Positions 2,760-42,019 of a stretch of DNA of 64,000 nt are shown piece by piece. The notes under the pieces were generated by a model. The model was not told the DNA's origin. It ran no database searches and saw only the letters and a program-made list of their open reading frames with translations. The stretch comes from Candidatus Omnitrophota bacterium. Lineage in GTDB: Bacteria > Omnitrophota > Gorgyraeia > Zapsychrales > JBAZNR01. The stretch covers positions 257,766 through 321,765 of the forward strand of contig JBAZNR010000002.1 of NCBI GenBank assembly GCA_041649175.1, read 5' to 3'. Position 1 is the first letter of the stretch. The number at the start of each line of letters is the position of its first letter. The position numbers and the translations under genes were made by a program.

Positions 2760-4280
2760 ATGATCACAAGAAAAAACGTATCTATTTTTTCATTCCTTGG
2801 TTTCCTGGGATTATTTCTTTTCTTTTCTTCCGGCGCATCCGCGCAGTCTTTATCTTTAGAAGACAGGTTTTTCTTAAACCCTCAAACCTCAAAAACAATT
2901 TCCATGGATTTTAAAGACGCGGCACTTAACGATGTCTTAAAAATATTTTCCCAACAATCGGGCTTGAATTTTATCGCCGAACAAGAAGTCATCGAAAAAA
3001 AGATCACCTTATTTTTAGACAAAGTTCCCGTTGAGCAAGCCTTAGAAAAGATCCTCAGCGCCAACAATCTGACCTACGAGATCCAGGCTGACAGCAATAT
3101 TTTCATCGTTAAATCATTAGGGGCCCCGGTTAAAGAGCTAGTCACGCGGGTTTACTACCTAAAAAATGCGACGGTGCAATCATCGAAATTCAACGCAACC
3201 ATAAACATCGAAGACGAAGAAGATAGCGAAGGCACCAGCAATCAAAACACAATGTTCGGCTCGACAGGCCAGGCCGAAAATGGCGTTGCGTCAGCCCTTA
3301 AAACGATCTTAAGCGAATCCGGAAAGATCGTTGAAGACCCTCGCACCAATAGCATTATTGTAACGGATATTCCCAGCCAATTTCCTTTGATTGAGCAAAC
3401 GATCGCGCGCTTAGATGTTCCGGTGTCGCAAATCCTCATTGAAACAGAAATGCTCGATGTTTCCAAGGATAACGCGGATAAACTCGGTATTAAATTTGGC
3501 GATACACCTTTGACATTCACCGGCGGAGAACGTGACCACGTTTATCCGTGGAACCAAAATAACCTTTTGCGAAAAGGCTTTGCCTTTGAAGAAGCGGAAT
3601 ATCGGGTGGGGACAATAAGCGCGGCCGGGCTATCGGCAACGTTGCAATTTTTGCGTACGCAGACCGACACGAAAAATCTTGCCCGTCCAAGAATTTTAAC
3701 GCTCAATAATCAAACGGCGCAAATTAAAATTTCGACAAATGAAGCCATCGGAGTTCAGACAGTCACAGACTCCGCGCAATCCAACGCAACGACAACCGTA
3801 GAAGCCGAACGTGTGCAAACCGGCGTTTTTTTAACCGTAACGCCGCAGGCCAATTTAACAACCCGCGAAATCACGATGGCGATCGCGCCGCGCGTTATTC
3901 AGGCGCGCTCCGGCGCGACATTCGAGGGAAAAACTTTTAAAGATCCGGAAGAGCGGGGAACAAAATCGATCTTGCGCGTTCAAGACGGCGACACAATTAT
4001 CTTAGGCGGGCTTTTGCGAACAGACTTAACAAATACGACCACAAAAGTTCCGGTCTTGGGAGATATTCCTATTGTCGGCGCGGCTTTTCGCCATAAAGAC
4101 AAAAGCGACATCGAACGAGAACTGATCATTTTTATTACGCCGCACATCGTCAGCGACGCAACAACCGCAAAACTCGCATTAACCACAAATCCTCAGGACA
4201 TCGTGCGCGAACAAGATGTTCCCGAATCGCGTCGCCAGCAAATAACCGATACGCTAAAGCGGATAGAAAATCAAAGGTAA
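2760..4280 (+). CDS. pilQ: type IV pilus / T2SS secretin (PilQ/GspD family)
   Basis: 506 aa with a signal peptide. Secretin hallmarks: IIVTDIPSQFPLIEQTIARLDVPVSQILIETEMLDVS and ...ILGGLLRTDLTNTTTKVPVLGDIPIVGAAFRHKDKSDIERELIIFITPHIV. Confidence 0.8.
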   Translation: MITRKNVSIFSFLGFLGLFLFFSSGASAQSLSLEDRFFLNPQTSKTISMDFKDAALNDVLKIFSQQSGLNFIAEQEVIEKKITLFLDKVPVEQALEKILSANNLTYEIQADSNIFIVKSLGAPVKELVTRVYYLKNATVQSSKFNATINIEDEEDSEGTSNQNTMFGSTGQAENGVASALKTILSESGKIVEDPRTNSIIVTDIPSQFPLIEQTIARLDVPVSQILIETEMLDVSKDNADKLGIKFGDTPLTFTGGERDHVYPWNQNNLLRKGFAFEEAEYRVGTISAAGLSATLQFLRTQTDTKNLARPRILTLNNQTAQIKISTNEAIGVQTVTDSAQSNATTTVEAERVQTGVFLTVTPQANLTTREITMAIAPRVIQARSGATFEGKTFKDPEERGTKSILRVQDGDTIILGGLLRTDLTNTTTKVPVLGDIPIVGAAFRHKDKSDIERELIIFITPHIVSDATTAKLALTTNPQDIVREQDVPESRRQQITDTLKRIENQR

Positions 4281-40825: not shown

Positions 40826-40850
40826 TTAAATTATTACCAAGGAGGCGGTT

Positions 40851-41360
40851 ATGGCCATGTTAAGAGACAGAAAAGACCAGGGGGAAAGGATCGTTGAGAT
40901 CAGCGCCAAAATGCAAGGGACGCTTTCCTTTAAAGATTCCGTGAATTTAAAAATTACCGGACGTTTTGAAGGAACTCTGGAAACCAGAGGAACGCTCACC
41001 ATCGGCGAAACCGCCTCTGTCGAAGCGCACATCACCGGAGAGAATATTGTCGTTGCCGGAAAGATCAAAGGCGATGTGACCGCCAAGAAAATGCTTGTCT
41101 TAATGCCAACGGCCGTTTTAAACGGGAATATCGCCACGCCAAAGCTTAATATCGTGGAGGGCGCCATTTTCCACGGAAAATGCCAGATGTTCGAAGACTC
41201 CTTAGACGTCGATGAATTGTCAAAATATCTAGAGATCGAGATCAATGCGATCTTAGAGCTCGCCAATTCCGGAAAGATCCCCGCCATGAAAAACGGCAAT
41301 GCCTGGCGGTTTGAACGCACCAAGATCGACGAGTGGGCCGCCTCGGAAAGAGTAAAATAA
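40851..41360 (+). CDS. bactofilin domain protein with C-terminal excisionase-type HTH (HTH_17) DNA-binding domain
   Basis: 169 aa. Residues ~20-115 are a bactofilin beta-helix with repeating xGxIxGxV windings (LSFKDSVNLKITGRFEGTLETRGTLTIGETASVEAHITGENIVVAGKIKGDVTA…). C-terminus LDVDELSKYLEIEINAILELANSGKIPAMKNGNAWRFERTKIDEWAAS matches HTH_17. Confidence 0.6.
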   Translation: MAMLRDRKDQGERIVEISAKMQGTLSFKDSVNLKITGRFEGTLETRGTLTIGETASVEAHITGENIVVAGKIKGDVTAKKMLVLMPTAVLNGNIATPKLNIVEGAIFHGKCQMFEDSLDVDELSKYLEIEINAILELANSGKIPAMKNGNAWRFERTKIDEWAASERVK

Positions 41361-41361
41361 A

Positions 41362-41664
41362 ATGTCCGATCAATTTATCTCGGTTCGTGAAACAGCCCAG
41401 CTTTTAGGCACCACCGAGAAAAAAATCATGGATCTGGTGGAAAAAAACGAACTGCAGGCTTACCGAATTGCCGGCCAGTTTTTGCGCCTTAAAAAAAGCG
41501 AAATCTTGGCTTTAAAAAGCAAGGGGACCGTTGCGGTTGAAACAGCGCAAATTGCGTACACTCCGGCCGAGCGCCTGCGTGATTTTATTTATTTTAATGA
41601 TTTTTACATCTTAGCGGTCGCCGTTATTTTAATCCTTCTCTATATCATCTTCTATGTGGTCTAA
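41362..41664 (+). CDS. excisionase-type HTH (HTH_17) DNA-binding protein with C-terminal TM anchor
   Basis: 100 aa. ISVRETAQLLGTTEKKIMDLVEKNELQAYRIAGQFLRLKKSEI (HTH_17), then hydrophobic C-terminal helix FYILAVAVILILLYIIFYVV. Start is 1 nt after the bactofilin-HTH stop. Confidence 0.5.
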   Translation: MSDQFISVRETAQLLGTTEKKIMDLVEKNELQAYRIAGQFLRLKKSEILALKSKGTVAVETAQIAYTPAERLRDFIYFNDFYILAVAVILILLYIIFYVV

Positions 41665-42019
41665 TTTTAGAAAATACAATTTTGTTATTAGCATCTTTAC
41701 CGGAGTATTTTTCCTGGCCGGCTGTGCTATGTTCCAGCCTAGCGCTAAGGCCGATAAAAGGCGGGCGGAAATAGAAACTCGCCAGAAGAATTATGAAGCA
41801 CTACATACGGCTGTCCGCGCGAATACCCTTACGATCGACACGAGTGACTCGGCAATCCGCGATCTGTACGGAGAACCGGGGCAAGTCTTTAGCTCCGGGT
41901 CTTCCTCGGGGATGTTCCAAATTTGGACCTACGAAAAAATTCTCTCGACCGGCAAACCGGAATGGGAAACCATACGCCTTTACTTTAACAATGGCAAGCT
42001 GGTCAGCTGGAGTTATTAA
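41654..42019 (+). CDS. small lipoprotein, BamE (SmpA/OmlA)-like candidate
   Basis: 121 aa. Lipobox FFLAGC. C-terminal …IRDLYGEPGQVF…WTYEKI…IRLYFNNGKLVSWSY resembles the BamE fold. Confidence 0.35.
   Translation: MWSNFRKYNFVISIFTGVFFLAGCAMFQPSAKADKRRAEIETRQKNYEALHTAVRANTLTIDTSDSAIRDLYGEPGQVFSSGSSSGMFQIWTYEKILSTGKPEWETIRLYFNNGKLVSWSY

Follow-up and report, generated by a model that had tools for sequence, protein, structure and literature searches.

A bactofilin–HTH_17 fusion and its tail-anchored HTH_17 partner: a conserved gene pair of the Omnitrophota and a possible membrane-attached scaffold

A 64,000-nucleotide stretch of the genome of a Candidatus Omnitrophota bacterium (GenBank assembly GCA_041649175.1, contig JBAZNR010000002.1, positions 257,766 to 321,765; hereafter the window) carries two adjacent genes, at positions 40,851 to 41,664, encoding a 169-aa bactofilin fused to a C-terminal helix-turn-helix (HTH) domain of the HTH_17 family and a 100-aa protein, the partner, in which another HTH_17 domain is followed by a single hydrophobic helix. 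We find that fusion and partner together are a conserved chromosomal two-gene module of the Omnitrophota, probably inherited vertically, and that the two HTH domains differ in charge, that of the bactofilin being consistently acidic and that of the partner usually basic. The explanation we favor, at a probability of roughly 0.38, is that the module forms a membrane-attached two-protein bactofilin scaffold in which the acidic fused HTH docks, while the membrane anchor and whatever DNA binding there is come from the partner.

The initial annotation of this stretch had recognized the fusion and the two domain families, and both points hold. A search of 5.8 billion proteins returned 924 matches to the fusion at E ≤ 1e-3, and the best 120 of these are all 167–190 aa long, 63–100% identical to the query and in possession of both Pfam domains; wherever their source is named it is Candidatus Omnitrophota. 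One database entry (P0001, on a 659-kb contig) is 100% identical to the 169-aa fusion. In a scan of GTDB, with one genome per species, 278 species representatives encode a relative of the fusion, and the locus counts given below refer to the best 80 of these 278. Mean column identity across the aligned fusion is 68%, with invariant residues in both the beta-helix and the HTH. When 1.84 billion cluster representatives were searched exhaustively with a HMMER profile, only about 20 full-length fusion representatives were recovered at the 50% identity level, below which the matches are fragments and ordinary bactofilins; the divergent representatives retain Bactofilin and HTH_17, joined by a linker that sometimes reaches about 22 residues, and those that are named are again Omnitrophota. 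Four matches that appear to hold half of the gene (P0134, P0140, P0153 and P0260) are contig-edge or adapter-contaminated fragments. Two of them, P0134 and P0153, end in IGRAHV or IGRASCRERV, typical of adapter read-through on short contigs, and this accounts for versions that seem to consist of bactofilin alone. Conservation of the architecture in hundreds of contigs and in the 278 species representatives leads us to reject an artefact of assembly or a frameshift that joined two genes.

The pairing of the two genes is obligate in these loci. A partner homolog lies directly downstream of the fusion and on the same strand in 80 of 80 loci; it is 97–102 aa long wherever complete. In 22 loci there is a 4-nt overlap with the fusion stop codon, and in 50 the distance to that stop is no more than 12 nt. 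The partner family comprises 423 database matches of about 100 aa, all from Omnitrophota where named. In the window exactly one base (41361) separates the TAA stop of the fusion from the ATG of the partner, just as the initial annotation had reported. Two upstream genes are near-constant companions, TsaD (69 of 70 loci) and CtpA (56 of 57). Other neighbors vary: MgtC stands directly upstream in 43 of 76 loci, 21 of 70 have a lipoprotein homolog downstream at a distance of up to 1.2 kb, and within 5 kb TilS is found in 35 and FtsH in 28 of 61 loci. No integrase, recombinase or defense genes were found around the pair in the flanks of the loci from different species. As the two genes belong to a housekeeping block conserved on the chromosome, the role in plasmid positioning that had been suggested for them is unlikely.

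Divergent members of the family have other surroundings. The loci of fusion P0123 (L083 and L084) have BatD, TPR and MgtC proteins upstream and PDZ/TPR and HAMP proteins downstream, and the partner is still directly 3' of the fusion, complete with its juxtamembrane motif and tail anchor. The short MgtC-only membrane protein (148 aa in the window, without the C-terminal soluble domain) has a counterpart directly upstream of the fusion in these two loci as well (at 3535–3972), which hints at a loose three-gene association of MgtC, fusion and partner. In the locus of the remotest fusion cluster (P0188/P0290; locus L085, 1–4850, JGI 3300009777, on a 12-kb contig) the fusion lies downstream of a Volactin-family (actin-like) gene, of a gene for a 465-aa ParA/CbiA-type ATPase that ends in a glycan-binding module of the AMPK1_CBM/CBM48 type, and of two uncharacterized genes whose products have about 216 aa. 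An MscS-like gene follows this fusion in the place of the tail-anchored HTH partner.

With regard to taxonomy, loci L002–L005 and many other metagenome-assembled genomes (MAGs) bearing the module were deposited as 'uncultured Planctomycetales' (ENA third-party, TPA, assemblies). These are 60–76% identical to, and in full synteny with, MAGs named Omnitrophota. The submitter label is probably a placeholder, and the best 80 loci probably all come from Omnitrophota MAGs.

The N-terminal two thirds of the fusion is a bactofilin. Residues 16–112 match PF04519 (profile positions 4–98 of 98) with 87.7 bits against a cutoff of 27.9, and an AlphaFold2 (AF2) model with a mean predicted local distance difference test (pLDDT) score of 86.5 and a predicted template-modelling (pTM) score of 0.64 lays the protein out as a disordered stretch (residues 1–11), a beta-helix (14–113), a linker (114–119) and an alpha-alpha-beta-beta-alpha winged helix (120–164). 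Foldseek matched the beta-helix to Caulobacter crescentus BacA (2n3d, TMt 0.75) and to Thermus thermophilus TtBac (6rib, TMt 0.77; 6ria was matched also), and a profile of the family finds 2n3d (E 1.8e-9) as well as 6ria (E 8.9e-9). In the profile alignments to 2n3d and 6ria, F107 of the fusion stands opposite BacA F130 and TtBac F105, and it is invariant in 85 fusion sequences. The substitution F130R disrupts the polymerization interface of BacA and abolishes polymerization (PMC12448750), and 6ria is itself the F105R mutant of TtBac. As the invariant F107 matches these residues, a polymerization determinant that can be checked in sequence is present, and the protein is predicted to be a polymerization-competent bactofilin.

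The N terminus of the fusion is non-canonical. Position-wise counts over 114 orthologs give the motif M-(A/G)-(L/F)-R-D-(R/K)-(R/K)-(E/D). The global bactofilin membrane-targeting sequence (MTS) has the consensus MFSKKKK, in which F2, K4 and K7 are essential and K-to-E changes abolish binding (PMC12448750); such a sequence is typical of the bactofilin family, not universal. The fusion has Ala or Gly at position 2 and acidic residues at positions 5 and 8, and as the motif differs from MFSKKKK we class it as non-canonical. Like the canonical bactofilins BacA and TtBac, the fusion has a full-length beta-helix and the polymerization Phe, but it differs from them in its N terminus, in the folded winged HTH that replaces the disordered C-terminal tail about six residues past the last strand, and in the obligate pairing of its gene with that of a tail-anchored HTH protein. 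Two close relatives within this bactofilin subfamily carry something else at the C terminus, a PilZ domain in P0162 (253 aa) and a hydrophobic TctB-like tail in P0159 (176 aa), the latter possibly a read-through artefact. Adaptor modules at the C terminus thus seem to be interchangeable in this subfamily.

The C-terminal domain of the fusion is of the winged helix-turn-helix (wHTH) type by both profile and fold. Residues 118–166 match HTH_17 (PF12728) with 42.1 bits against a cutoff of 27, and TIGR01764 ('excise', excisionase family DNA-binding domain) matches with 33.7 bits against 28.8. The AF2 model has helices at 120–127, 131–139 and 156–164 and strands at 146–148 and 151–155, a MerR-like wHTH fold, and Foldseek matches it to BldC (6ama; root-mean-square deviation 1.8 Å over 51 residues), RdfS, Tn916 Xis, RacA (5i44), Pukovnik Xis, CbpM and pSK1 Par (8csh).

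What sets this domain apart is its acidity. The C-terminal module (linker plus HTH), in the 64 sequences in which it was delimited, has an isoelectric point (pI) of 4.06–4.96 and a net charge of −8 to −2, and the last 54 residues of the fusion are net negative in 80 of 80 loci (−6 to −1). Acidic residues are 93–100% conserved at D121, E122, E128, E130, E155 and D160, and the HTH of the remote fusion clusters P0130 and P0188 is acidic likewise. We mapped the DNA-contact positions of BldC onto 81 fused and 80 partner HTH sequences, using a BldC sequence that agrees with all 20 residues named in PMC5859096. BldC contacts DNA through K26, T27, T29, R30, W31 and K33 of helix alpha2 and through H46, R47 and R48 of the wing (PMC5859096). 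In the fused HTH the K26 position holds P, N, S, A or D, the T27 position A, S, T or E, the T29 position L, I, V or E, and the K33 position N, S, T, D or A; the position of R30 is Glu or Asp in 71 of 81 sequences. At the mapped positions the only basic residues that remain are K142, K147 and, in part, R153, so that the domain lacks an electropositive DNA-binding surface with basic or hydroxyl residues in recognition helix and wing. Given this acidic character, which recurs in the remote clusters, and the loss of the BldC contact residues, canonical major-groove reading by the filament-borne HTH is unlikely. Direct DNA binding by the fused HTH, and with it the earlier idea that the filament protein itself grips DNA, appears doubtful.

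The partner presents a different picture. Its residues 6–53 match HTH_17 with 31.7 bits (cutoff 27) and TIGR01764 with 35.4 bits (cutoff 28.8), and the AF2 elements (strand 5–7, helices 8–15 and 19–27, strands 33–36 and 40–44, helix 45–53) again make up a wHTH fold. Its median pI is 9.16 and it is net positive in 69 of 80 loci. The equivalent of BldC K26 is Lys in 76 of 80 partners and that of T27 is Lys in 69, R41 is matched by Arg or Lys in all 80 and R48 by Arg in all 80. Judged by these residues the partner is the better candidate for DNA binding than the fused HTH. The initial annotation had described the two domains as the same HTH; both do belong to HTH_17, but BLASTP gives no alignment between them, and from their sequences they are not demonstrably paralogs beyond membership of that family.

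A variable linker (residues 54–67) leads from the partner's HTH into a juxtamembrane motif of striking constancy, in which Y66, D74 and Y82 are invariant and E70, F75, Y77, N79, D80 and F81 are conserved to at least 90% in alignments of 81 and of 66 orthologs. The divergent partner of locus L083 keeps it as DLFYFNDFYF. In the AF2 model a helix spans residues 80–99, with mean pLDDT of 86–95 across residues 71–100, and the peak 19-residue Kyte–Doolittle hydropathy has a median of 2.36 and begins at residues 79–83 in nearly all orthologs. Hydropathy and model together thus bear out the earlier call of a C-terminal transmembrane helix. Since nothing follows this C-terminal hydrophobic helix, we read the partner as a tail-anchored protein that has its HTH in the cytoplasm and lacks a sensor domain; its insertion into the membrane is predicted from hydropathy and the model.

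How might the two proteins work together? We propose that the beta-helices polymerize and so would put a regular array of acidic winged helices on display, which would act as docking modules, not DNA readers, and couple the filament to the tail-anchored partner. Coupling could proceed by wHTH–wHTH head-to-tail contacts like those of BldC and RdfS, or via the partner's juxtamembrane motif, and the multivalency of the polymer would turn weak single contacts into a stable attachment. Attachment to the membrane would come from the partner, and its basic winged helix is the likeliest part of the assembly to hold DNA, so that the whole would amount to a split analogue of the RocS, Par or RacA–DivIVA nucleoid tethers. 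Both proteins would be made from one transcript, often by translational coupling. A docking-adaptor role for the C-terminal position fits with the PilZ domain or hydrophobic tail that relatives in the subfamily carry there.

A scaffold with a docking partner appears to us the most economical explanation in view of parallels in several known systems. First, BacA lacking its MTS can reach the membrane when a membrane-anchored client recruits it in trans, and polymerization and membrane binding reinforce each other (PMC12448750). Second, in Bacillus subtilis BacR (YhbD, DUF4004), which has a MerR-like HTH, binds the bactofilins BacE and BacF and is thereby recruited to the membrane; the bactofilin-bound BacR loses DNA binding, and BacR moves between membrane foci and the nucleoid (PMC13649987). 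What it has in common with the module described here is the broad theme of an HTH encoded beside a bactofilin. Unlike fusion and partner, however, BacR is a soluble protein of about 210 aa that belongs to DUF4004, is separate from the bactofilin and comes from a different phylum, and PF13171 (DUF4004) has no match at E ≤ 1 in either of our proteins in a Pfam search.

Third, RocS of Streptococcus pneumoniae, pSK1 Par and the RacA–DivIVA system of B. subtilis combine a MerR-like wHTH with an oligomerizing element and a membrane or pole anchor, an analogous logic (PMC11500499, PMC4914108); RocS function requires the wHTH, oligomerization and the membrane anchor, and its membrane binding in turn requires oligomerization (PMC11500499). 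In these tethers oligomerization falls to a coiled coil (with DUF536 in RocS and Par) and anchoring to an amphipathic helix or to DivIVA. Neither fusion nor partner matches DUF536 or contains a coiled coil, and the partner has only its 14-residue linker, so that oligomerization would have to come from the bactofilin. The C-terminal anchor of the RocS/Par/RacA type has its counterpart in the partner, although as a predicted transmembrane tail and not an amphipathic helix. RacA (5i44) and Par (8csh) resemble the fused HTH at the level of fold, and the DNA-contact residues mapped from BldC are not conserved in it. Fourth, the wHTH modules of BldC and RdfS make head-to-tail contacts as arrays on DNA (PMC5859096, PMC11963761). 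BldC, RdfS and Xis share fold and Pfam family with the fused HTH and form multimeric arrays, which a filament would pre-organize; they are basic, stand-alone proteins of 55–90 aa, whereas the fused module has a pI of about 4.6 and no equivalents of K26, T27, T29, R30 and K33. Finally, the BacNOP–PadC–ParB/ParA system of Myxococcus xanthus is a bactofilin scaffold that positions chromosomal DNA (PMC5703909). There the link to DNA is indirect, via PadC and ParB/ParA; the bactofilin bears no HTH, and a tail-anchored partner is absent.

Several observations weigh against a scaffold of this kind. The remotest fusion cluster (P0188/P0290) has no adjacent partner. The charges of fused and partner HTH show no co-variation across loci (Spearman rho −0.02). 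Binding of DNA by the partner, as read from its sequence, is likewise not assured: the confidence of AF2 in its HTH is moderate (pLDDT 60–74), the equivalent of BldC R30 is Asp in 73 of 80 partners, and in 11 of 80 loci the domain carries no net positive charge, being neutral or negative. The N-terminal motif of the fusion, with one hydrophobic and three basic residues, may bind the membrane alone, in which case the partner's anchor would be unnecessary. And the linker that joins the beta-helix to the HTH, about six residues long, might have a steric effect on the C-terminal polymerization interface.

The earlier proposal of an assembly of filament, membrane and DNA survives as a live model on the strength of the pairing, the tail anchor and the RacA and Par structural neighbors; what is weakened is the fused HTH as its DNA binder. 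In its most ambitious form the model would make a bactofilin polymer with its own wHTH and a tail-anchored wHTH protein a minimal, nucleotide-cofactor-free chromosome tether or organizer at the Omnitrophota membrane, a split, cytoskeleton-based counterpart of RocS and RacA–DivIVA and the first case in bacteria of a cytoskeletal filament linked directly to DNA by HTH domains of its own. We hold this extension to be speculative and, on balance, unlikely.

A direct tether, in which both HTH_17 domains bind DNA, the polymer gripping a chromosomal site or array and the partner pinning the same or nearby DNA to the membrane, is the reading of the initial annotation, and we judge it improbable. Both HTHs do score above the HTH_17 and TIGR01764 cutoffs, and the fused one superposes on DNA-bound BldC, RacA and pSK1 Par. 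K142, K147 and R156 are conserved in it and R153 is basic in 48 of 81 sequences, so that backbone or minor-groove contacts mediated by the wing are possible; the avidity of a polymer could offset weak affinity of the single domain, and the head-to-tail DNA arrays of BldC, RdfS and Xis have a geometry that a filament could mimic. Set against this are the net negative charge and low pI of the fused domain, the absence of any basic recognition-helix residue in most orthologs together with the Glu or Asp at the R30 equivalent, and the near-complete conservation of acidic surface positions, which argues for selection for acidity. In addition, a tandem-repeat search near the locus found no repeated DNA motif or candidate binding array.

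The opposite possibility is a scaffold independent of DNA, in which both winged helices are protein–protein modules (compare CbpM with the CbpA J-domain) and the polymer is a platform for envelope, division or pilus-related clients. The acidity of the fused HTH and the acidic residue that both HTHs have at the BldC R30 equivalent are consistent with it, as are the presence of CbpM, a MerR-like protein-binding module, among the structural neighbors and the envelope-related genes nearby (CtpA, a deacetylase-like protein, MgtC and the lipoprotein). Bactofilin functions are moreover typically morphogenetic and involve membrane clients such as PbpC (PMC12448750). The usually basic partner HTH, with its Lys–Lys pair and invariant wing Arg, speaks against it, and the genomic context points to no client, the neighbors other than the partner being variable. 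Overall this possibility seems to us just as improbable as the direct tether.

Still less probable is a transcription-factor switch, a version in cis of BacR–BacE/F, in which the bactofilin would oligomerize or sequester an HTH regulator and polymerization or partner binding would toggle its access to DNA. The behavior of BacR, which loses DNA binding on bactofilins and shuttles between membrane foci and nucleoid (PMC13649987), offers a precedent, and linkage of HTH to bactofilin genes is also seen in Bacilli and Clostridia. The arrangement of the genes argues otherwise: only 25 nt lie between MgtC and the pair in the window, leaving no room for an operator or promoter, promoter-like sites occur at chance level, and the pair sits inside a long co-directional housekeeping array. 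Further, the partner would be permanently tail-anchored, neither protein has DUF4004, and the fused HTH is without DNA-contact residues.

An origin as an excisionase or recombination directionality factor, as a MADS MAD1-like anti-phage system or as an assembly artefact, brought to mind by database names that include 'excisionase family DNA binding protein', by weak matches to phage excisionase PHROGs and MAD1 and by the tRNA-Met downstream, can practically be dismissed on context and sub-threshold scores, given that MAD1, whose cutoff is 80 bits, reaches 43.6 and 20.4, that PADLOC gives 16.8 bits for the partner and nothing for fusion or neighbors, that CtpA, TsaD, TilS and FtsH synteny extends across species with no recombinase nearby, and that identical architectures recur in hundreds of independent assemblies.

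Full-text literature searches found no bactofilin–HTH_17 fusion, in line with the initial annotation, which knew of none described, and no paper that joins bactofilin with Omnitrophota or with HTH_17; nothing relevant was found on the cytoskeleton or nucleoid biology of the Omnitrophota, and database annotation of both proteins is automatic only. Each domain belongs to a known family, and what appears to be undescribed is the covalent combination of bactofilin and HTH_17, the acidic HTH_17 derivative and the obligate partner with its tail anchor. Bactofilins occur widely as scaffolds, and work on their clients and modes of membrane attachment continues; their links to DNA have so far been indirect (PadC/ParB) or by way of a separate regulator (BacR). 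Should fusion and partner interact, they would represent a new mode of bactofilin membrane anchoring, and possibly of nucleoid anchoring too, with HTH_17 re-used as a docking module, and they would give a first handle on cell organization in an uncultured phylum. At 169 plus 100 aa the system is small, and it can be tested by heterologous expression without culturing the organism.

The features of the locus are collected in Table 1. The pair is part of a closely packed, co-directional array that runs from genes for a CtpA-like protease, a deacetylase-like protein, TsaD and MgtC through fusion and partner to a lipoprotein-like ORF (open reading frame) of 121 aa, beyond which lie tRNA-Met (460 nt 3' of the partner gene), an SNase-like nuclease, TilS and FtsH. 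The fusion gene is probably co-transcribed with the genes upstream, as its ATG follows the MgtC stop (40825) by only 25 nt. Scans for promoter-like and terminator-like sites around the locus gave chance levels, and the 121-aa ORF matched no family in Pfam or NCBIfam.

Table 1. Features of the bactofilin–HTH_17 locus, in window coordinates
Feature	Position	Strand	Details
MgtC-family membrane protein gene, 148 aa	40379..40825	+	Pfam MgtC 128 bits; frequent, non-obligatory upstream neighbor
Shine-Dalgarno AAGGAGG	40839..40845	+	5 nt upstream of fusion ATG; sequence reading
Bactofilin–HTH_17 fusion gene	40851..41360	+	ATG start, 169 aa plus stop; Pfam Bactofilin and HTH_17
N-terminal tail of fusion, residues 1–13	40851..40889	+	pLDDT < 50 at residues 1–11
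Bactofilin beta-helix, residues 14–113	40890..41189	+	strands over 14–108, pLDDT 89–97 (AF2)
Acidic HTH_17 winged helix of fusion, residues 120–164	41208..41342	+	after ~6-residue linker 114–119; AF2
Partner gene, tail-anchored HTH_17 protein	41362..41664	+	ATG start, 100 aa plus stop; HTH_17 and TIGR01764
Partner winged HTH, residues 5–53	41374..41520	+	usually basic; K20–K21 at start of recognition helix, R42 in wing
Juxtamembrane motif Y(T/S)xxERxxDFFYFNDFY, residues 66–82	41557..41607	+	near-invariant; AF2 helix over 68–78
Predicted C-terminal transmembrane tail anchor, ~residues 80–100	41599..41661	+	without extracytoplasmic domain
121-aa lipoprotein-like ORF	41654..42019	+	lipobox-like FLAGC; 11-nt overlap with partner stop; variable downstream neighbor

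A third HTH_17 lies at the very start of the window, where the initial annotation had taken positions 1–123 for the C terminus of a larger gene and had linked it to the pair. These positions are instead the 3' end of a complete, stand-alone HTH_17 ORF of 61 aa (locus L081, 5826–6011) that gene callers missed. It has a GTG start, encodes a protein of pI 10.07, shares 11 nt with pilM in the region of the pilM start codon and is the first gene of a type IV pilus cluster of PilM, PilO, a 144-aa ORF, a secretin, a PilB-like ATPase, PilC and a pilin. Of the proteins analyzed it is the 61-aa one that matches phage excisionase and HTH families most strongly, and it looks like an ordinary small stand-alone regulator and may regulate the pilus operon. 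As to whether all three HTH_17 domains are paralogous, the 61-aa protein is 39% identical to the fused HTH, but the kinship does not extend demonstrably to the partner, for which BLASTP found no alignment with the fused domain. Family-specific hidden Markov models, which are narrow, recovered only the three known HTH_17 domains in the window and no further one in the flanks of the 80 loci. The third HTH is an independent gene 40 kb away by pilM with no counterpart near the 80 related pairs, and we rejected it as a part of the pair's system; nothing ties it to the module or lends support to the proposed coupling to DNA uptake.

The searches also brought up HTH_17 proteins of another kind. P0187 (479 aa) consists of eight tandem HTH_17 repeats (Pfam 321 bits) and P0158 (231 aa) of three (122 bits). 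Both join covalently, in a single chain, copies of a module that in the arrays of BldC, RdfS and Xis comes together without covalent bonds.

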